NCBI GenBank assembly: GCA_016181245.1
Contig: JACOZR010000022.1
Span: 1 to 44,872, forward strand
DNA length: 44,872 nucleotides
From: Candidatus Woesearchaeota archaeon
GTDB taxonomy: Archaea; Nanobdellota; Nanobdellia; SCGC-AAA011-G17; GW2011-AR20
Reading direction: 5' to 3'
Shown here: positions 3,096 to 43,275 of the stretch, in pieces
Layout of the letters: each line of letters starts with the position of its first letter
Position numbering within the stretch: the stretch's first letter is position 1
Position numbers and translations under genes: made by a program
Notes under the pieces: model-generated
What the model was told of the DNA's origin: nothing
The model's database searches: none
What the model saw: only the letters and a program-made list of their open reading frames with translations

Positions 3096-3399
3096 GCAAC
3101 TAAATCCAACGCTAGAAAAATTGGTCTTAGTTGTTGTTAGTGATGCTTTGTCTATGACTAAACCAAGAAACTTTGTTAAAAGACTTTTGATTGCTGTTGA
3201 TCGCGCTATTAATGCTTATGCTGCTGATTTGGAATATGAAGAAAGTATATATGGAATCCCTATTGAGATGAAATGGATTTATAACCCCTTTGCATCTGGA
3301 AAAGAGCTTAGAGTTATGAGTGCTAGACACCACTTGACAAATTATGTGCACAAATATATAGAAGAAAATTTTCCAGAATATTCAGAACAAGTATTATAA
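3070..3399 (+). CDS. hypothetical protein inserted between dnaK and dnaJ
   Basis: 109-aa ORF whose first 26 nt overlap the dnaK 3' end. The real start is more likely TTG 3121 or ATG 3154 (MTKPRNF...). No domain recognised. Confidence 0.45.
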
Positions 3400-7722: not shown

Positions 7723-9438
7723 ATGACACAAACAAGATCTCTAATATGTCTACTTACAGGCCATGTAGACCATGGAAAGTCTCAGATAATTGAGACTATA
7801 TCAAAAAAAAAGATTTTAAATAAAGAAGCGGGAAGGATTACCCAGAAAATAAGTGCTGTTAAAGTTGACATAAATGATATTAATTCTTTAGCAGGAAGAC
7901 TATTAAAAAATTTAAAGATAAAAATCAAGATTCCTGGGTTTTTGTTTATTGATAGCCCGGGGCATGCTGCTTTTACAAACTTAAGAAAAAGAGGGGGAAA
8001 TTTAGCTGATATTGCCATATTAGTAGTTGATGCAAATGAGGGAATATTAGCTCAAACTCAAGAAGCTATTGAAATATTAAAGAAATGCAAGACTCCTTTT
8101 ATAATTGCCTTAAATAAAATTGATTTGGTTTCAGGATGGAGGCAAAATGTTGGAAAGGATATTTTAACAAATATTAATTCTCAATCTGAAACAACTAGAG
8201 ATCTATTAGATAATAAGTTGTATACTCTTGTTGGAAAATTATATGAACTCGGATTTAATGCTGAAAGATTTGACAGAGTAAGTGATTATACAAAGCAGGT
8301 TGCTATTGTTCCTATTTCTGCCAAGACTACTGAAGGATTGCAAGAATTATTAGCTGTTTTAGTGGGTTTAGCACAAAAATATTTAGAAAATGAATTGAAT
8401 GTTGAACTTTCTAAAGGAGGTAAAGGTGTTGTTTTAGAAGTTAGGGAAGATAAAGGTTTAGGAACCGTTTTAGATGTGGTTTTGTATGATGGCAAGATTT
8501 CTGTTAATGATGAATTTGTTATTGGAGGAATTGAAAATCCAATTGTTACTAAAGTAAGAAATATATTTGAAATGAAAAAACCAGTTGAGCATGTAGAAGC
8601 TGCTGCTAATATAACTTTAATTGCTCCAAATGTTGAGGAAGTTTGTGCTGGAATGCCTTTAGCCGTTGTTGACAAATTAAATGATGTAAATAAATTAAAA
8701 AAAGAAGTTCAAGAGCAAGTTGAGGAAGTTGTTATTGAGACTGGGAAAGAGGGTATTGTTGTTAAAGCAGATAGTTTAGGAAGCTTAGAGGCTTTAGTTT
8801 GCTTGCTTAAAGATAAAAAGATTCCAATCAAAAGAGCTAGTGTTGGGGAAATTTGCAAAGGAGATATTGCAGTAGCTGAATCGCAAAAAGATGAGATTAA
8901 CAGAGTGATTGTTGGATTTAATATTAAAGATGTAAAGGAAAATGTTCAAGTTATAACCTCTGATGTTATTTATACAATTATTGAGAAATTTGAGAAATGG
9001 AGAGAGTATACTAAGAAAGACTTAGAAACTAAGAAGTTAGATAGATTAACAAGGCCTTGCAAAGTTTATATTATTCCTAATTTTGTTTTTAGACAGAGCA
9101 ATCCTGCTGTTGTTGGCGTTGAAATCTTAAAGGGAACATTAAAAACAACTATGCCTTTAATGAATGGAACTGGAAAAAGAATAACTGAAGTGAAAAGCAT
9201 TCAGGAAGAGGGAAAAAATGTTAATGAAGTTTGCAAGGGAAAACAAGTTGCTGTTTCTCTGCCTGGAGTTATAGTTGGAAGGCAGGTAATTGAAGGACAA
9301 GTTTTAGTTTCTGATCTTAATGAAGAAGAATTTAGAAGATTAAAAGAGATGAAGACTTTTTTAACTCCTGATGAAATTGAATTATTAAAGGAAATTGCTG
9401 AGTCTAAAAGGAAAAATAATCCTATGTGGGGAGTTTAA
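7723..9438 (+). CDS. infB: translation initiation factor aIF5B (IF2-type GTPase)
   Basis: 571 aa with an uninterrupted GHVDHGKS, plus DSPGHAAF and NKID. The domain order is typical of aIF5B. Confidence 0.93.
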   Translation: MTQTRSLICLLTGHVDHGKSQIIETISKKKILNKEAGRITQKISAVKVDINDINSLAGRLLKNLKIKIKIPGFLFIDSPGHAAFTNLRKRGGNLADIAILVVDANEGILAQTQEAIEILKKCKTPFIIALNKIDLVSGWRQNVGKDILTNINSQSETTRDLLDNKLYTLVGKLYELGFNAERFDRVSDYTKQVAIVPISAKTTEGLQELLAVLVGLAQKYLENELNVELSKGGKGVVLEVREDKGLGTVLDVVLYDGKISVNDEFVIGGIENPIVTKVRNIFEMKKPVEHVEAAANITLIAPNVEEVCAGMPLAVVDKLNDVNKLKKEVQEQVEEVVIETGKEGIVVKADSLGSLEALVCLLKDKKIPIKRASVGEICKGDIAVAESQKDEINRVIVGFNIKDVKENVQVITSDVIYTIIEKFEKWREYTKKDLETKKLDRLTRPCKVYIIPNFVFRQSNPAVVGVEILKGTLKTTMPLMNGTGKRITEVKSIQEEGKNVNEVCKGKQVAVSLPGVIVGRQVIEGQVLVSDLNEEEFRRLKEMKTFLTPDEIELLKEIAESKRKNNPMWGV

Positions 9439-13929: not shown

Positions 13930-15846
13930 ATGCCAGTATTTACACAATACAAAGCTACAAAGAAAAGTAGAATTGATGGACTTGTTAATTATGTAAGAAC
14001 AGAACTGGGAGAATATAGATCTGGCTCGTTGGATAATTTATTGACATGCAATGAGTTGGGTGCTGTATTTGGGATATCATCTGGCTATGCTTCTTTACTT
14101 ATCCAAAGAAACTTTTCTTTGGCAGATAAAAACTATAGGATTGGGATAGTAGAACTCCAAAGAGGGAGAAGAGTTTCGGCTTCAAAAACTGGAATTAAGA
14201 AGTCTAGGCAGTCTGTAGAAAGAACCTCTAAAACTAAATTAAAAAATTTACTTATTAAACTGGATGGATTAAAACCTTATATTCTTGATGAGTTACGGGC
14301 GTATAAGGGAGGGCGTATTCAATTTTTGTCTTCAAACGATGAGCTTGCTTCACTTTATGGGGTTACTCACACAACTATACGTAAAATATCTCGAAGAATT
14401 TTGAATAAAAAAGATTCTTCACTTAGAGATAAAATATTAAGGGAAAACACTAGGAGAAAAATTTCTATTTCTAGGTCGAGTTATAATGAGGAAGGACGAA
14501 AATTATTGATTTCTGAAGTAAAAAGAGAACTATTCTTATATTCTTCTGGCAAGTCTTTTGCAGTTTCTTCTTCGGAGGAATTAGCTGAAAAATTTGGTAT
14601 CAGTTCTCAAACAGTTTATCTATGGATGAAAGAAGATTTACCTGATTCAGAAATTAGATCTAGAAACCAATATTTAGTTCAATCGCGGAAATTAAGATTA
14701 ACTGAGCAAAGACGAATTATACATGAAGATATAATTGACTTTATAAAAAAAGAGATTGTGGCTCATAGGGAAGGAAAAATTTCTAGAGTGACAGGTACAA
14801 CAAAACTGATGAGTAAATTTGGTATAACTCAAGGTCGTTTATCTTTTATTATTGATGAAAACCTTACAAAAGATGACATAGCATATAGGATTAGTGCCAT
14901 GAATAAACAACGTGCGGATGATTTTACTGCTGCTAGAACAAAAGAAAATTTATTAGACTTTTTAGATTATGTAAGTGATGAAATCCGTAGACATAGGTCT
15001 GGTGATTTGCCTAGACTTACTTTTGCTACTCAATTAGGTGAAGAATTTGATATCTGTGGCACTGCTGCATCTTATAGACTTCGTAAATATCTGGACAGAC
15101 AGGATTTTGATTATTGGTTAAATATTGTTAAGCAGCAAAAACTGAGTGATATGGCTAGTCTTAAAGGAGAAAAACATCCAATGTTTGGCAAGAAACATTC
15201 TCAAGAAACAAGACTTAAAATATCTAATGCTAATTCAAAAAAAGAAGGATTTCCGCAATGTATTGATTTTGTAAAAGCTGAAATAGAATTACATAAATAT
15301 GGGAATATAAGCAAATTTTCTAGTATAGGCTCTTTAGGTGAAAAATTTGGAATTTGTGGCCATACTATTCTGAAGTGGCTCAAGAAGGGATTATCTAAAG
15401 AAGAGCTTGATTATAGAAGAGATGTTACTAGGTCTCAAGTGGGAGTAAGGGGGGCAAATCACTATTTGTTTAATGGTCATATGCGTCTTAAGTATAGCGT
15501 TTTTTTTACAGATGTTATGAGATCTTATATCCGGGCAAGGGATAATTTTGAATGCCAGCTGTGTGGTGCAACTGAAGGAAGAAGAGCCCATCATGTTCAT
15601 CACATAGATTATAATAAGAAAAATGATGGTGAGATGAATTTAATACTATTATGCGGTAGATGCCACCCATCTATCGGTTCTTCTTTAATCTACTTGGGAG
15701 AAGTATGGAATTTCTTGTGTAACAAAAGGATAGAAGACATTTATGAGGATATGTTTGAAGAAAGATTTAGAGATTTGCAGCAATTTAAATTTGATTTGAT
15801 GGTTATAAATGGATTAGAAGGTTTATTGGATCAACATTTTGATTAA
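13930..15846 (+). CDS. HNH endonuclease with a NUMOD3 motif and six tandem HTH-type repeats
   Basis: 638 aa. Six ~55-aa repeat cores spaced ~75-105 aa apart share the core h..Eh..a+.G.....s...L...FGI....h. NUMOD3 GEKHPMFGKKHSQETRLKIS is at about 15163-15225. HNH CQLCG...HHVHHIDYNKKNDGEMNLILLCGRCH is at about 15535-15669. Confidence 0.75.
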   Translation: MPVFTQYKATKKSRIDGLVNYVRTELGEYRSGSLDNLLTCNELGAVFGISSGYASLLIQRNFSLADKNYRIGIVELQRGRRVSASKTGIKKSRQSVERTSKTKLKNLLIKLDGLKPYILDELRAYKGGRIQFLSSNDELASLYGVTHTTIRKISRRILNKKDSSLRDKILRENTRRKISISRSSYNEEGRKLLISEVKRELFLYSSGKSFAVSSSEELAEKFGISSQTVYLWMKEDLPDSEIRSRNQYLVQSRKLRLTEQRRIIHEDIIDFIKKEIVAHREGKISRVTGTTKLMSKFGITQGRLSFIIDENLTKDDIAYRISAMNKQRADDFTAARTKENLLDFLDYVSDEIRRHRSGDLPRLTFATQLGEEFDICGTAASYRLRKYLDRQDFDYWLNIVKQQKLSDMASLKGEKHPMFGKKHSQETRLKISNANSKKEGFPQCIDFVKAEIELHKYGNISKFSSIGSLGEKFGICGHTILKWLKKGLSKEELDYRRDVTRSQVGVRGANHYLFNGHMRLKYSVFFTDVMRSYIRARDNFECQLCGATEGRRAHHVHHIDYNKKNDGEMNLILLCGRCHPSIGSSLIYLGEVWNFLCNKRIEDIYEDMFEERFRDLQQFKFDLMVINGLEGLLDQHFD

Positions 15847-16024: not shown

Positions 16025-18359
<2,335 letters not shown>

Positions 18360-21723: not shown

Positions 21724-22969
21724 TCTCTAAAGAAGCTACACCTATTAATCTCCAACGAGATCCTAAATTTCTTGAAATTGTTATTCTGTCTGTTTTTGAT
21801 ACACAAACCGGTATTTTTAATGAAACATGGATTATATCTTTTTTCATTTCTGTTACTGCGCCCACTGTTGCGGCTGAATTAACATTTAACATTAAAATTT
21901 CTCCTTTTTTTATTGGTTCAACTACTAAATCATCTTTTGCTCCAACTACTCTTTCTAATAATTTTGGTTTTATGTTAAATTCGTAAAATACTTCTGGAAC
22001 TTTGCCTTTTAATCCAACTACATTTCCTGTTAGATTATCTGATTTTACAATTGAAGGATCTAATGATGTTAATATTCCGGATGAACCTCCAGGAGATAAT
22101 TCTTTAACTTCTATCTCTCCTGTTTTTAATCCATTAATTTTTGTTATTATTGGTTTCCATACTGCTTTTGTTTCATCTATTTTTAAGCCTGGTCTTATTT
22201 CTATTTCCTCGTTTACTTTTAACTTTCCTTGCTTTAATGAACCACCTAAAACTCCGCCTACTAAACTGTTTATATCTGCGCCTGGCCTGTTAATGTCGAA
22301 GCTTCTCGCTACAAAAAATAATGGAGATGCATCTGAATCTCTTTTTGGAGTTTTTATTGTATTTTGAATTTCTTCCAATAATATATCAATATTAATATCG
22401 TGCAAGGCTGATATTGGGATTATAGGTGCTTTTTCAGCTATTGTGCCTTTTGTGAACTTCTTTATTTGCTCATAATTTTTTAGTGCTTGTTCTTCTGTTG
22501 TTAAATCTATTTTACTTTGGATTACTATTATGTTTTTAATTCCTATGATATCTAGAGCCATTAAATGCTCTCTTGTTTGCGGCTGAGGGCATTCTTCATT
22601 TGATGCTATTAATAATAATGCGCCGTCCATTATTGCTGCTCCTGAAAGCATTGTTGCCATTAAAGTTTCGTGACCTGGAGCATCTATGAATGAAATTTTT
22701 CTTTCAAAAATTGCTTTTGATTTACAAACTTCACATGTTTTTTTTGTTGTGTAATGATTCTTAGAACATTTGTAAATTGATGTATCTGCATAACCCAATC
22801 TAATTGTTATTCCTCTTTTAACTTCTTCAGAATGGGTGTCTGTCCACTTACCCGACAATCTTTCAGTTAGGGTTGTTTTGCCATGCAGTCGGATTTAAGT
22901 TTTTTCTTAAAATCTATCGACGTGGCCAATTAACCCTATATTGACTTCTGGTTGTGATTCTTTTTCCAT
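21704..22969 (-). CDS. eif2g: translation initiation factor aIF2 gamma, split by a 30-nt intron (exon 1 22916-22969, exon 2 21704-22885)
   Basis: The ORF-track protein begins at SGKWTDTHSEEVKRGITI and lacks the G1 motif. Exon 1 reads MEKESQPEVNIGLIGHVD. Exon 2 resumes HGKTTLTERLSGKW in the ORF frame. DAPGHETL and SKID are present. The joined length is about 411 aa. Confidence 0.85.
22886..22915 (-). other. BHB-type mini-intron in aIF2-gamma mRNA
   Basis: The RNA is AGAUUUUAAGAAAAAACUUAAAUCCGACUG with an in-frame UAA. It is flanked by a central helix GUCG/CGAC, 3-nt bulges AU|A and UG|C, an inner 8-bp stem and an outer helix GCCA/UGGC. Confidence 0.7.
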
Positions 22970-23005: not shown

Positions 23006-24223
23006 CTAGAAAGGAAGATCTTCTTCTAGACCCTCTAATGAGCATTCTCCTTGATTTGGAGGAATTTCTCCCATATAGACTTCATGAATCCATTCAATTT
23101 CACGCTCTGTAGCAATGCATTCTGGATCTAATGGAACTAGTTTATCTTTTGATTTTTCTTTGTTCATTTTAGTTATCCTATTTCCAATTATTTTATGCCC
23201 CAATAAATAAAATTCTGGAACATTTTGCTGGAAGAATACTTTATTTACTGCAATAGGAAACTCTCTTCGGACCATAGAAATTGCACCGCATATTTTTTCT
23301 GGATTGCGGTTAGTTTCTTTAGCACTGATTGTTATATCATCTACCCATCTTGTGTATCTCAGACCTTTTTTCAATGCACATATGTGGAGAACTTCATCTA
23401 TAGGATAGAATAACCTATTGAATAAGCAGATACTTATGGGAGATCCTACAGGAAGCGCTGAAATTTGCGTATCGCTATAATATACTGTTGATATGGATGT
23501 AAGAAATCCGGCTATATCCCTCCTTATTTCTCGGTTTTCAATTTTATTTTCAAATAATGTGTAATAAAAATCAAAAACATACTGAATATGCGTATTTTTA
23601 AATGCATTAGCTAGATCGAAAGATAATACTGTACCTAGAGGTAAATGCCTACTTAAGCTTTTTTTTGGTGAAAAACCTTGTTCTCCCCCGTGGCATTGGG
23701 AATGACAAGGAGCTTCCATTATAATCGGCTTTACGTATTCTATTAAAAGATGCTCTAAGGAATCTTGAGGAATGGAAATATCTCTAACTTTTCCGTTTAT
23801 TCTTTGTGACCACCTTTGGTACAAATGTTTTCTTTCTCCTTTCAATGCTAACAAATCGTCTAATAATACCTCTAACCTTTCCTGCTTGTTATCTAACATT
23901 GATAACTGATTGTCGAGTGGAAGAAGTTCTAATAATGTTTTTAGAATTATTTCTTTTTTACTCTCTAATACCTCTAAAGGGTTTCTTGTTTCTGAGAAGT
24001 ACTTAACAAGTTCATCTGCATAAGACATGGGAAGCCAAGGTCCTGTAAAATATGCACCAGGTACCAATGGTACTGAACTTAGAAATATCGTTGGTGTGCC
24101 GTCTGTATCAATTTCTAAATCTGGATTTTCACTAGGAATAACATCTAACCTACTGCCCATACTCATACAGTCTACGAATATTCTAAATCTTCTTCCGCTA
24201 GGAGCATACATCCGGTCTTCCAT
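23006..24223 (-). CDS. reverse transcriptase, unclassified stand-alone type
   Basis: 405 aa with collinear RT motifs: VRDISIP, SFDLANAF, LPVGSPISICLFN, RYTRWVDDITIS (VDD is encoded at 23336-23344) and FYLLGHKI. The N-terminal ~140 aa match no domain I know. Confidence 0.8.
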   Translation of the reverse strand: MEDRMYAPSGRRFRIFVDCMSMGSRLDVIPSENPDLEIDTDGTPTIFLSSVPLVPGAYFTGPWLPMSYADELVKYFSETRNPLEVLESKKEIILKTLLELLPLDNQLSMLDNKQERLEVLLDDLLALKGERKHLYQRWSQRINGKVRDISIPQDSLEHLLIEYVKPIIMEAPCHSQCHGGEQGFSPKKSLSRHLPLGTVLSFDLANAFKNTHIQYVFDFYYTLFENKIENREIRRDIAGFLTSISTVYYSDTQISALPVGSPISICLFNRLFYPIDEVLHICALKKGLRYTRWVDDITISAKETNRNPEKICGAISMVRREFPIAVNKVFFQQNVPEFYLLGHKIIGNRITKMNKEKSKDKLVPLDPECIATEREIEWIHEVYMGEIPPNQGECSLEGLEEDLPF

Positions 24224-39002: not shown

Positions 39003-41228
39003 ATGGCAGATGTAGATGTTGTAAAGAGAGTAAGAGAGTTAATGAATAATCCTGAGCAGATTAGGAATATATGTACGTGTGCCCATATCGATATAACTTA
39101 ATAATTTACTACTTTTAAGTTACGACAGCATGGGAAGACGACATTTAGTGATAATTTGCTTTTAGGAGCAGGCATGATCTCTGAGGATTTAGCAGGTAAA
39201 CAGTTGTCTTTAGATTTTCATGAAGATGAGAAAGAAAGAGGCATTACTATTGATGCTGCTAATGTTTCTATGATCCATAAGTTGGCAGATAAAGAATTTT
39301 TAATTAACTTGATTGATACTCCAGGACATGTTGATTTTGGAGGAGATGTTACAAGAGCAATGAGAGCTTGTGATGGAGCTATTGTTTTAGTTTGTGCTGT
39401 TGAAGGAATAATGCCTCAGACAGAGACTGTTTTAAAACAAGCATTAAGAGAAAGAGTTAAGCCAATTTTATTTATTAATAAAGTTGATAGGTTAATCAAA
39501 GAAGTTAAGTTGACCCCTGAAGCAATGCAGCAAAGATTCATTAAGATTATTACAGATGTTAATAGATTAATTAAAAGTATTGCACCTGATGAGTATAAAG
39601 AGAAATGGCAGGTTAATGTTCAAGATGGAAGTGTTGCATTTGGAAGCGCTTTCCATAAATGGGGATTAAGCGTTCCTTATATGCAGAAACATGGAATTTC
39701 TTTTAAGGATGTGATTGAGGCTTATGTTTCTGAAAAGCAATCAGAGTTGGCGAAGAAAGCTCCTATGCATCAAGTTGTTTTAGATATTGTTACAAGACAT
39801 CATCCTAATCCAAGACAAGCTCAAGCTTATAGAATACCGAGAATATGGCAGGGAGATTTAGAGTCAAGTTTAGGAAAATCTTTATTAAGCTGCGATCCGA
39901 ATGGAGAAGTTGCGTTTGTTGTTACTAAAATTGTTGTTGATAAACATGCAGGAGAGGTTGCTGCGGGAAGATTATTTTCTGGAACTGTAAAACAAGGGCA
40001 AGAGGTTTATATGATTGGAGCTAAGAGAAGATTAAGAGCGCAGCAAATTAATATTTATAAGGGAGCACAGAGATTTCAGGTAGAAAGTGCTGTTGCAGGA
40101 AATATTATTGGGATTATTGGACTAAAAGATGCTTTTGCAGGAGAAACTGTTTCAAGTATCGACATGGAACCTTTTGAAGCTATCAAGCATATTTTTGAGC
40201 CTGTTGTTACAAAATCTATTGAAGCAAAGAAAGCAAGTGACTTGCCCAAACTAGTTGAAGTTTTGAGACAAGTTAACAAAGAAGATCCAAGTATTTTTGT
40301 TTCTATTAATGAAGAAACGGGAGAAAATTTAATAGCGGGAATGGGAGAGCTGCATTTAGAAGTTGTTGAAAACAGGATAAGAAAAGAAAAAGGAGTTGAT
40401 GTTAAAACTTCTAATCCTATTGTTGTTTATAGAGAATCAATACTGAAAAAATCTAGAGAAATAGAAGGTAAAAGTCCAAATAAACATAATAAATTTTACT
40501 TTATTGTTGAGCCAATACCAGATAATGTTTATGAAGCGATTAAAAGTGGAGAGATCCAAGATGGCAGGATAAAGAAAACCGACAGAGATCTTTGGGACAA
40601 ATTTGTTAAATTAGGATATGAAATGAAGGAAGCTAGAAGTGTTAAGCAAATATTCAATGGAAATGTTTTGATTGATTCAAGTAAGGGTATTGTTCACATT
40701 GGTGAAGTTATTGAATTAATCATGGATGGGTTTGAGCAGGTTATGAGAGAAGGACCATTAGCAAGAGAACCTGGTATTAAGATGGTAGTAAGATTGAAAG
40801 ATACTACACTACATGAAGATGCTATTCATAGGGGGCCATCACAAGTATTGCCTGCTGTTAGAGAATCAATAAGAGGAGCAATGGTTGATGCACAGGCAGT
40901 TTTGTTTGAGCCGTTACAAATTTTACAAGTAGATATTCCTGCAGAGTATTTAGGAGAAATTTCTAAATTAGCTGGAAATAAAAGAGGACAACTTTTAACT
41001 GTTGAACAAGAAGGCGAGCACATAACTTGTAAGATTAAATTACCTGTTGCTGAAATGTTTGGACTAAGCAATGATTTGAGAAGCGCTACTGAGGGCAGAG
41101 GAAGTTTCTTTGTTCTTGATCAGGCTTTTGAAAAGTTACCTAGTGAGTTACAAGATAAAGTGATTAAGAGCATAAGACAAAGAAAAGGTTTGAAGACTGA
41201 AACTGTTTCTGAATCTGAGGAGAAATGA
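39003..41228 (+). CDS. fusA: elongation factor aEF-2, split by a 36-nt intron (exon 1 39003-39092, exon 2 39129-41228)
   Basis: The ORF-track protein starts at LLGAGMISEDLAGKQ and lacks G1. Exon 1 reads MADVDVVKRVRELMNNPEQIRNICTCAHID. Exon 2 resumes [16 protein letters not shown] in frame. DTPGHVDF, NKVDR and the diphthamide loop HEDAIHRGPSQ are present. The joined length is about 729 aa. Confidence 0.87.
39093..39128 (+). other. BHB-type mini-intron in aEF-2 mRNA
   Basis: The RNA is AUAACUUAAUAAUUUACUACUUUUAAGUUACGACAG with an in-frame UAA. It has a central helix AUCG/CGAC (one A.C mismatch), 3-nt bulges AU|A and AG|C, a perfect 8-bp inner stem UAACUUAA/UUAAGUUA and an outer helix CCCAU/AUGGG. 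Confidence 0.72.
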
Positions 41229-41991: not shown

Positions 41992-43275
41992 ATGGCTAAA
42001 GAAAAACCACATCTCAATTTAGTGTTTATTGGTCATGTAGACCACGGAAAGAGTACTACAGTAGGTAGACTATTATTTGATTCTGGAGCTATCACCGAAC
42101 AGGCTTTAAGAAAATTAAGAGAAAAAGCAGAAGAATTAGGAAAGAAAGGATTCGAATTTGCTTTTGTTATGGACAATTTGAAAGAGGAAAGAGAAAGGGG
42201 GGTTACTATTGACCTTTCTCATAAAAAATTTGTTACTGACAAATATGAGTTTACTATAATTGATGCACCAGGACATAAAGATTTTATTAAAAACATGATT
42301 ACAGGAGCTAGTCAAGCAGATGCTGCTGTTTTAGTTGTTGCTGCAACTGATGGTGTTATGGAACAAACTAAAGAGCATATATGGTTGAGTAGAACTTTAG
42401 GTGTTGGGCAAATGATTATTGCTGTCAATAAAATGGATGCAGTAAAGTATGAACAGGCTAGATTTAACAAAGTCAAGGAAGATGTTAGCAATGTTTTGAA
42501 GACTGCAGGATTTAAATTAGATACTGTTGCATTTGTTCCAATTGCTTCATTCCCTGGAGACAATGTTGTTAAGAAATCAAGCAACCTAGGATGGTATACA
42601 GGACCAACATTAAGAGAACAACTTGATTTACTAAAATTACCTGAGAAACCAACTAACTTACCTTTGAGATTACCGATTCAGGATGTATATAATATTACTG
42701 GTATTGGTGTTGTTCCTGTTGGAAGAGTTGAAACAGGAATAATGAAGATTGGAGACAAGGTTATTGTAACTCCAGGAAGAGAAGGTAAGGGTGTTCCTGG
42801 TGAAGTAAAGACTATTGAAATGCACCATGAGCAAGTTACCCAAGCAGAACCAGGAGACAATATTGGATTTAATGTAAGAGGCATTGGAAAGAAAGATATT
42901 GCCAGAGGAGATGTTTTAGGACATACCGATAACCCTCCAACTGTAGCTTCTGAATTTACAGCTCAGATTGTTATCTTGAACCATCCAACTGTTATAACTG
43001 CAGGATATACTCCGGTTTTCCATGTACACACTGCACAAGTAGCATGCCAATTTGTTGAGTTGGTAAAAACAATCAACCCAGCTACAGGTGAAACTTTAAA
43101 AGAAAAACCTGATATGTTGAAAAATGGTGATGCTGCGATTGTAAAGATAAGACCAACTAAGCCAATGGTTATTGAAAAACAAAAGGATATACCTCACATG
43201 GCAAGGTTTGCTATCAGAGATGCAGGAAGTACTGTTGCTGCAGGTATGTGCATTGACGTGACTAAAAAGGTTTAA
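41992..43275 (+). CDS. tuf: elongation factor aEF-1 alpha
   Basis: 427 aa with an uninterrupted GHVDHGKST, plus DAPGHKDF and NKMD. AGGAGG lies upstream. Confidence 0.97.

Follow-up and report, generated by a model that had tools for sequence, protein, structure and literature searches.

The nearest precedent for an archaeal protein gene interrupted by a bulge-helix-bulge (BHB) intron is the cbf5 pre-mRNA intron of Crenarchaeota (Watanabe 2002; Yoshinari 2006; Yokobori 2009, PMC2738675). In the searchable literature, which does not take in all journals, it is the only one: papers to 2025 cite that case alone, and no earlier account of such introns was found for GTPase genes or for protein genes of DPANN archaea. 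Here, I describe two short inserts that are very probably introns of this kind, in the genes for the translation factors aEF-2 and aIF2-gamma of a Candidatus Woesearchaeota (DPANN) genome. Both lie on contig JACOZR010000022.1 (GCA_016181245.1), which was analysed as one stretch of 44,872 nucleotides (nt), hereafter the window. The window has a G+C content of 32.5%, and its nearest relatives are metagenome-assembled genomes labelled Candidatus Woesearchaeota.

As in cbf5, the inserts interrupt a catalytically essential motif, so that splicing would be needed; they are of similar size, some are multiples of three in length, exon sequence forms part of the splicing motif, and lineage-specific loss is inferred. 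Unlike cbf5, which encodes a pseudouridine synthase in Crenarchaeota, the hosts are translational GTPases of DPANN Woesearchaeota. Two paralogues are interrupted at a homologous site, at least three insertion positions fall within 15 nt, turnover is patchier (sister alleles differ), and an intein co-occurs 9 nt downstream. Splicing of cbf5 was shown experimentally, whereas that of aEF-2 and aIF2-gamma is deduced from sequence.

BHB introns of archaeal tRNA and rRNA share the same geometry (hBHBh'), and the lengths of the introns described here fall inside the tRNA intron range of 11-129 nt (PMC4090602). For Thermoproteales tRNA introns, similar sequences at related sites of different genes led to the suggestion of BHB-guided transposition (Fujishima 2010, as relayed in PMC4090602), and the present introns may likewise have similar sequences at related sites in different genes. 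Unlike tRNA and rRNA introns, they reside in mRNA and conserve an early in-frame stop, and the exon half of the BHB is built from codons, so that synonymous sites carry structural constraint. A more distant likeness is found in the IRE1-dependent splicing of HAC1 and XBP1, where removal of a short mRNA intron takes no spliceosome but an endonuclease specific for structure together with a tRNA ligase (RtcB in the case of XBP1) (PMC4090602), and where splicing also alters which protein can be made. That system differs in its endonuclease (IRE1), its twin stem-loop motif and its place in a regulated stress response; no regulation is claimed for the introns described here. Finally, inteins at HGK^T of aEF-2 in related Woesearchaeota (the caret marks junctions throughout) share the same P-loop (G1) target, removal after transcription and a patchy distribution, but they are in frame, translated and removed as protein, whereas the inserts contain stops or frameshifts and are defined by RNA pairing. 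What is new is, on the best reading, the occurrence of BHB introns in new host genes (aEF-2 and aIF2-gamma) and in a new lineage; the kind of mechanism is already known.

Two interrupted P-loops and their predicted folds

The window encodes four translational GTPases: aIF5B, aEF-1alpha, aEF-2 and aIF2-gamma. In both the aEF-2 gene (forward strand) and the aIF2-gamma gene (reverse strand), an insert breaks the GTP-binding P-loop at precisely the boundary between the codons for Asp and His in (A/G)H(I/V)D^HGKT (the D^H site). This position had been reported in a first-pass annotation of the window, together with a first base A, a CGAC-NG end and TTAA-containing stems in both inserts, and all of these hold in the sequence. 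The features of the two genes are as follows.

39003-39092, forward strand: aEF-2 exon 1, ATG at 39003, 30 codons ending in C-A-H-I-D, with GCC CAT ATC GAT at 39081-39092
39082-39092, forward strand: aEF-2 exon 1 pairing strands, CCCAU 39082-39086 (outer helix, 5' strand), AUCG 39087-39090 (central helix, 5' strand), AU 39091-39092 (bases 1-2 of bulge 1)
39093-39128, forward strand: predicted aEF-2 BHB intron, 36 nt, ATAACTTAATAATTTACTACTTTTAAGTTACGACAG
39093-39122, forward strand: aEF-2 intron, A 39093 (third base of bulge 1), inner helix UAACUUAA 39094-39101 with UUAAGUUA 39115-39122, loop 39102-39114
39123-39128, forward strand: aEF-2 intron 3' part, CGAC 39123-39126 (central helix, 3' strand), AG 39127-39128 (bases 1-2 of bulge 2)
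39129-41228, forward strand: aEF-2 exon 2, CAT GGG AAG ACG at 39129, H-G-K-T-T onward to the stop codon
39129-39134, forward strand: aEF-2 exon 2 pairing, C 39129 (third base of bulge 2), AUGGG 39130-39134 (outer helix, 3' strand), with more exon 1 pairing to ~39152
22969-22916, reverse strand: aIF2-gamma exon 1, ATG at 22969, 18 codons ending in I-G-H-V-D, with GGC CAC GTC GAT at 22927-22916
22926-22916, reverse strand: aIF2-gamma exon 1 pairing, GCCA 22926-22923 (outer helix), GUCG 22921-22918 (central helix), AU 22917-22916 (start of bulge 1)
22915-22886, reverse strand: predicted aIF2-gamma BHB intron, 30 nt, AGATTTTAAGAAAAAACTTAAATCCGACTG, read from 22915 to 22886
22915-22892, reverse strand: aIF2-gamma intron, A 22915 (in bulge 1), inner helix GAUUU(U)AAG 22914-22906 with CUUAAAUC 22899-22892, loop A6 22905-22900
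22891-22886, reverse strand: aIF2-gamma intron 3' part, CGAC 22891-22888 (central helix), UG 22887-22886 (in bulge 2)
22885-21704, reverse strand: aIF2-gamma exon 2, CAT GGC AAA ACA at 22885, H-G-K-T-T-L onward to the stop codon
22885-22880, reverse strand: aIF2-gamma exon 2 pairing, C 22885 (in bulge 2), UGGC 22883-22880 (outer helix)

Without the inserts, aEF-2 reads as 729 aa with an intact AHIDHGKTT loop and aIF2-gamma as 411 aa with an intact GHVDHGKTT loop, and these restored proteins are 87-95% identical to full-length, uninterrupted relatives. Each insert has an in-frame TAA as its third codon (39099-39101 in aEF-2, 22909-22907 in aIF2-gamma), on account of which the inserts were rejected as inteins. 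Self-splicing group I or II introns were likewise discarded as candidates: the inserts measure only 30-36 nt, against a core of several hundred, and an Rfam scan gave no match anywhere in the window. A tRNA scan of the window also gave nothing.

A BHB motif is defined by a 4-bp helix that has a 3-nt bulge on each side and further helices beyond these (hBHBh'), placed at the exon-intron boundaries (PMC4090602; PMC5829648). Unconstrained minimum free energy folds of ~90 nt around each insert gave, in order, a helix, a 3-nt bulge, a second helix, a second bulge and a third helix, and each splice site falls within a bulge. In aIF2-gamma, the outer helix GCCA:UGGC and the central helix GUCG:CGAC (4 bp) are combined with bulges AUA and UGC, an inner helix of 5+3 bp, and an extra distal exon-exon helix of 7 bp (UAGGGUU 22938-22932 in exon 1 with AACCCUA 22874-22868 in exon 2). 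In aEF-2, the outer helix is CCCAU:AUGGG, the central helix UCG:CGA has 3 bp plus an A.C mismatch, the bulges are AUA and AGC, and the inner helix has 8 bp. The earlier proposal that conserved P-loop codons supply the exon halves of the motif, with the Gly/Ala-His codons complementary to the His-Gly codons in the outer helix and (A/G)UCG:CGAC in the central helix, was borne out by both folds.

In such motifs, each bulge is cut between its second and third bases (Thompson and Daniels; Marck and Grosjean). Cuts at AU^A and NG^C join GAU to CAU exactly and give (A/G)H(I/V)DHGKT in full-length reading frames, and the same rule also gives correct products for introns at two other positions of the P-loop (see below).

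With the splice sites fixed by protein homology, a central plus inner helix as good as the observed one arose in a fraction of only 2e-5 (aEF-2) and 3.5e-5 (aIF2-gamma) of 200,000 letter permutations. A loose BHB descriptor applied on its own to the whole window showed no enrichment (673 matches against 754 +/- 21 in shuffles) and no further convincing intron; since the descriptor is not enriched in this AT-rich window, significance comes from position, reading-frame restoration and comparative data. A covariance model of the introns (R1) found only the two inserts in the window, with 65 and 63 bits and the next best match at 11 bits, and on the window plus 156 fetched loci of relatives it returned the known introns and weak exon-only matches, with no new host genes. 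The observation is real and far beyond chance, and its interpretation as a pair of archaeal BHB introns in pre-mRNA is strongly supported.

In the transcript, the outer helix would arise from pairing between the codons on the two sides of the insert. The exon bases (A/G)UCG that precede the final AU would bind CGAC, close to the insert's 3' end, as the 4-bp central helix, and the insert's own hairpin would serve as inner helix, so that AU^A and (A/U)G^C are left as 3-nt bulges. By analogy with the tRNA pathway, each bulge would be cut behind its second base by EndA, the tRNA-splicing endonuclease, and RtcB would ligate the exons; these roles, like any regulatory one, are inferred. The product GAU^CAU would restore the P-loop, and the intron would be released, probably as a circle, while unspliced mRNA would present its TAA three codons into the insert and yield only a 20-33-residue peptide. 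One study reports on EndA types in DPANN lineages and analyses the tRNA genes of a Woesearchaeota genome (PMC5829648). RtcB is the archaeal ligase (PMC4090602; PMC5829648), with homologues widespread in archaeal genomes (PMC4090602).

Inserts in relatives, pairing and exon codons

Scanning species-representative genomes yielded 68 aEF-2 loci, eight of which carry an insert exactly at the D^H site. Tracing N-terminally truncated aEF-2 proteins to their DNA added six more distinct inserts at this site. The loci concerned are L004, L012 (same insert in L155-L157), L013, L014, L018, L029, L045, L060, L149, L150, L151, L153, L154 and L158 (same insert in L159). Together with that of the window, 15 distinct aEF-2 inserts of 30-40 nt were available; six of the 15 are not multiples of three in length, so the inserts cannot simply be translated through. 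Many samples, assembled independently of one another, contain them (ENA, JGI, Logan, NCBI). Gene callers have truncated the corresponding public aEF-2 entries to about 677-696 aa or started them inside the intron: P0011, P0012, P0041, P0046, P0067, P0084 and P0107 begin with MISEEL or a close variant, and other N-terminal truncations begin with MHGKTT (P0050) or LIRCHGKTT (P0062).

The predicted pairing is maintained across these alleles. Positions 2-4 of the central helix are paired in all 15 aEF-2 alleles, and the third base of the exon Ile codon matches its intron partner without exception (C/G in 10, T/A in 5): exon AUC GAU faces intron CGA (once CGG, giving a G.U pair), and exon AUU GAU faces CAA. 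In the alignment of the introns (A1), 86% of cells are paired at the 14 proposed pairs, compared with 29-39% when the partner was slid, and double-sided changes occur in 42 cells, a count reached by none of 500 shuffles. Compensatory changes were found at all five inner-helix pairs, and the central pair is C-G in 11 and U-A in 5 of the 16 sequences, never unpaired. Homologous introns thus conserve the BHB structure through compensatory changes, and the comparative data support a structure-dependent RNA intron.

The exon codons that flank the D^H site differ between intron-bearing and intron-less aEF-2 alleles. The Asp codon is GAT in 15/15 of the former and 27/55 of the latter (p=1.8e-4), the Ala codon is GCC in 12/15 and 10/55 (p=1.6e-5), and the Ile codon ATA was found in 0/15 and 11/55. 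The exon1-exon2 duplex energy, predicted for the 24 nt that precede the motif against the 24 nt that follow it, averages -12.0 kcal/mol in intron-bearing and -5.7 kcal/mol in intron-less aEF-2 alleles (Mann-Whitney p=5e-8). The two intron-bearing aIF2-gamma alleles reach -16.3 and -15.8, compared with -7.5 +/- 2.8 in 75 intron-less ones, of which one is as low; the nearest intron-less alleles, L160 and L161, have only -4.2 and -4.5. Between the window and L160, which share 94% protein and 90% nucleotide identity in aIF2-gamma, eight synonymous differences fall within 51 nt and each builds a helix in the window (codons GGG, GGC, GTC, GAT ^ GGC, ACA, CTA, ACT), the distal helix of 7 bp among them; L161 differs from the window in the same way. 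Co-evolution of exon codons with the intron, one of two options offered by the first-pass annotation, is well supported by the matching Ile base, the GAT and GCC bias and the stronger exon-exon pairing, as judged from alleles that are not phylogenetically independent.

The other option was a target-sequence requirement for intron gain; both options drew on the two uninterrupted GTPase genes of the window, which had been described as natural empty sites.

7759-7776, forward strand: aIF5B P-loop site, unsplit, GGC CAT GTA GAC^CAT GGA (gene 7723-9438)
42031-42048, forward strand: aEF-1alpha P-loop site, unsplit, GGT CAT GTA GAC^CAC GGA (gene 41992-43275)

Both are indeed unsplit, and their exon-exon duplex potential (-6.3 kcal/mol for aIF5B, -6.8 for aEF-1alpha) resembles that of ordinary intron-less alleles. 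Relatives are unsplit as well: among the best 120 aIF5B relatives listed, query coverage was 98-100% apart from one at 75% that its source labels partial, and no interruption was seen in ~35 aEF-1alpha genes of the fetched loci. The aEF-1alpha gene of L159 (3820-5102), called as two genes of 38 and 368 aa, was discarded as a case, as it has a 1-nt frameshift, probably a sequencing error, downstream of an intact P-loop and no intron. The two genes are simply uncolonised in every sampled relative. The argument that their GUAGAC cannot pair with CGAC is weak: it would explain a block to copy-and-paste transfer but not to intron gain as such, since the intron adapts to the exon (CGA, CAA or CGG).

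All 20 introns, counting all three insertion positions, reach an in-frame stop no later than five codons after the 5' splice site, compared with 36% of shuffles, and in 13 of the 16 introns at the D^H site this stop occupies intron nt 7-9. Either common ancestry of a UAAG stem motif or selection for instant termination on unspliced mRNA could account for this; selection is favoured because unrelated introns at the other positions have an early stop too. The stop may act as a fail-safe against translation of unspliced mRNA.

Several points weigh against the reading as BHB introns. The first central-helix pair is an A.C mismatch in the window's aEF-2, and a mismatch occurs there in 10 of 16 alleles, while the inner helices of L014 and L060 are looser than the others. 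The matches of R1 in the fetched loci are its own training sequences, the allele statistics treat related alleles as independent, and Pfam scans found neither EndA nor RtcB encoded within the 45-kb window. Moreover, the two window introns, aligned to each other, reached a global score of 3, which is no better than an architecture-preserving null (P=0.30) and does not demonstrate a common origin.

Kinship, turnover and competing explanations

The first-pass annotation had regarded the two inserts as copies of one element, or as one ancient insertion, and had named an alignment statistic as a test that could refute its view. For the window's own pair, "copies" is not supported by that statistic, and the shared A...CGAC-NG is largely forced by the common exon context. 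However, the aIF2-gamma intron is closer to the 15 aEF-2 introns than the null (P maximum 0.024, P mean 0.003), its best matches being L013 (21/30 with one gap) and L150 (20/30), with the layout AGA..UAAG..CUUA..UCCGA, and not the window's aEF-2 intron. At the family level, the idea of one element is plausible, with chances that I consider even; a relationship between the two window introns has only partial support. Derivation of the aIF2-gamma intron from the aEF-2 intron family, or its arrival by recombination with an intron-bearing allele, is a proposition on which the evidence is likewise evenly poised.

Convergence is a serious possibility, if somewhat short of an even chance: both inserts would be BHB introns that originated independently at the same site, their common features imposed by the UCGAU^CAUGG context and the needs of EndA. 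It agrees with the unremarkable similarity of the window pair, and with a CGAN end that is dictated by pairing to exon NUCG and becomes CAAN where the exon reads AUUG. Unrelated introns at two other positions of the motif (L075, L077 and L103; L152) also indicate that the region attracts independent insertions. What convergence does not account for is the proximity of the aIF2-gamma intron to the aEF-2 family, including the same layout in the match to L013, and the stop at nt 7-9 common to 13 of 16 introns.

The second insertion position lies in aIF2-gamma, inside the His codon 8 nt upstream of the D^H site, with introns of 30-31 nt (L075 ~3097-3126, L077 ~3097-3126, L103 ~934-964). They have a central helix UUGG:CCAA, bulges AC^A and AG^A and their own inner hairpin, the canonical cut restores G-H-V-D, and their sequences are unrelated to the introns at the D^H site. 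The third position lies inside the Lys codon of HGK in aEF-2 of L152 (~1428-1460, 33 nt; CATGGAA^TCCAGTTTTAGATAAATTTCTAACTGGTCATTG^AGACAACA), with a central helix AUGG:UCAU and bulges AA^U and UG^A; the sister allele L151 has an intron at the D^H site instead. Three insertion positions hence fall within 15 nt of P-loop coding sequence, which offers a ready outer helix because the Gly/Ala-His and His-Gly codons are reverse complements (GCCAU/AUGGC). Separately, some aIF2-gamma relatives have the second His of GHVDHGKT replaced (VDNGKT in L073, L116 and L103; VDTGKT in L098).

Inteins enter the same motif of aEF-2 in L016, L017, L024, L012 (same in L155-L157), L014, L060 and L158/L159 and in the proteins P0030, P0058, P0085, P0101 and P0007. 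Their insertion point, HGK^C...HN^TTF, is 9 nt further downstream than the D^H site; some are mini-inteins and others have a LAGLIDADG domain. Intron and intein occur together in four aEF-2 alleles, L012, L014, L060 (mini-intein) and L158 (same in L159; full LAGLIDADG intein), and the idea that the intron shields against intein homing was dropped in its simple form, as these alleles carry both. In L158 and L012, the extended outer helix of the intron takes in the first codons of the intein, with AAGUGCAU pairing to AUGCACUU.

Lateral exchange is suggested by the aIF2-gamma gene. Its intron is identical to that of L069 at 30/30 positions, while exon 2 is only 85% identical and differs at 28% of third positions; the proteins are 86% identical. 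Within a 52-nt exon patch around the intron, the window sides with L069 at 8/9 informative sites; outside it, the window sides with intron-less L160 at 123/178 sites (Fisher p=8e-4). Seen along the gene, the intron with ~50 nt of exon flank (22945-22865, reverse strand) is nearly identical to L069 and the rest is closer to L160. Lateral acquisition by recombination, in which the intron came along with short stretches of flanking exon (a conversion tract), would fit this mosaic; parallel selection on the same synonymous sites is an alternative.

That the mini-introns are mobile, spreading laterally between alleles and between paralogous GTPase genes with the conserved UCGAU^CAUGG context as target, I consider rather unlikely. 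Hints in this direction, all from the aIF2-gamma copy, are the identity with L069, the 52-nt patch of foreign affinity and a lineage-specific reverse-transcriptase insertion directly upstream. On this reading, reverse splicing followed by reverse transcription, or cDNA conversion, could drive both gain and precise loss.

The gene in question encodes a retron-like reverse transcriptase of 405 aa (23006-24223, reverse strand; RVT_1 31.7 bits; NCBIfam retron St85 RT 70 bits, below cut-off) and, on the same strand as the intron-bearing aIF2-gamma gene and upstream of it, stops 37 nt short of that gene. Compared with intron-less L160, 23025-24285 is a clean insertion of ~1.26 kb, around which no target-site duplication was evident in a repeat search. 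A role as conserved intron partner was rejected, as the gene is missing from all other fetched loci, including L069 with the same intron. Elsewhere in the window, a 638-aa open reading frame (13930-15846, forward strand) closely precedes gyrB (16064-17953); it has HNH, NUMOD3 and helix-turn-helix domains and the look of a free-standing homing endonuclease.

It is very improbable that the inserts stay in the mRNA and are passed by ribosome bypassing of the T4 gene 60 type or by stop read-through. The window inserts do look superficially like gene 60, being multiples of three (36 and 30 nt) with a stop codon near the start and a hairpin. However, the triplet before exon 2 is never GAY in the 16 introns (it is CAG, CTG, TTT, CCG or others), leaving the take-off codon GAU unmatched, and the homologous inserts include the six lengths that are not multiples of three. 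Read-through would place 10-12 extra residues inside the P-loop, and covariation extends to the central helix (exon with intron) and the outer helix (exon with exon), which define a BHB and not a bypass signal.

Pseudogenes or assembly artefacts would account for the in-frame stops and for gene callers shortening the proteins to ~684 aa starting with MISEEL. This too has very little probability: the exon 2 frames run unbroken for 700 and 393 codons and are highly conserved, the same kind of insert with covarying structure occurs in the independent assemblies named above, and aEF-2 and aIF2-gamma are generally known as essential single-copy translation factors.

In the aEF-2 tree, intron-bearing alleles are scattered, several with intron-less sisters. 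The window and L158 have the intron, whereas L001 and L002 (94-95% identical to the window) do not; further contrasts are L004 with and L003 without, L013 with and L011 without, and L012, L014 and L060 with and the nested L005 and L006 without. Among 80 metagenomic aIF2-gamma relatives, only L069 has the intron at the D^H site, and the four nearest proteins (94, 92, 88 and 87% identity) are full length, the first two (P0241, P0242) confirmed in DNA. The annotation's other suggestion, one ancient intron predating the aEF-2/aIF2-gamma divergence and kept only here, would explain the identical position and phase in both paralogues but is contradicted and practically excluded by this patchiness, with the intron absent from about 56/64 species-representative aEF-2 genes and 79/80 aIF2-gamma relatives, the nearest included, with intron turnover much faster than that of exons (18/36 identical intron positions between the window and L158 aEF-2, 89% identity in exon 1), and with hundreds of independent precise losses required.

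The pattern needs repeated recent gain and/or precise loss. The best explanation, on present comparisons, is that the inserts belong to a polymorphic population of Woesearchaeota mini-introns with fast gain and loss around the P-loop motif.

Meaning for translation factors and annotation in DPANN archaea

The tRNA-splicing machinery appears to be needed for the expression of two essential translation factors in a DPANN lineage. A reading compatible with mobility of the introns, and likewise rather unlikely, is that splicing would act as a checkpoint that ties aEF-2 and aIF2-gamma synthesis to tRNA-splicing capacity, with the early stop as fail-safe. As gene callers truncate or split intron-bearing genes, P-loop GTPases of DPANN archaea are given wrong annotations or are scored as partial or absent. 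Polymorphism of the introns between close relatives offers a natural system for intron gain and loss and for exon-intron co-evolution at synonymous sites. Finally, the self-complementary codons of a conserved motif (GH...HG) can serve as a ready-made splice-site scaffold, which is relevant to the question of why the same conserved motifs accumulate both introns and inteins.

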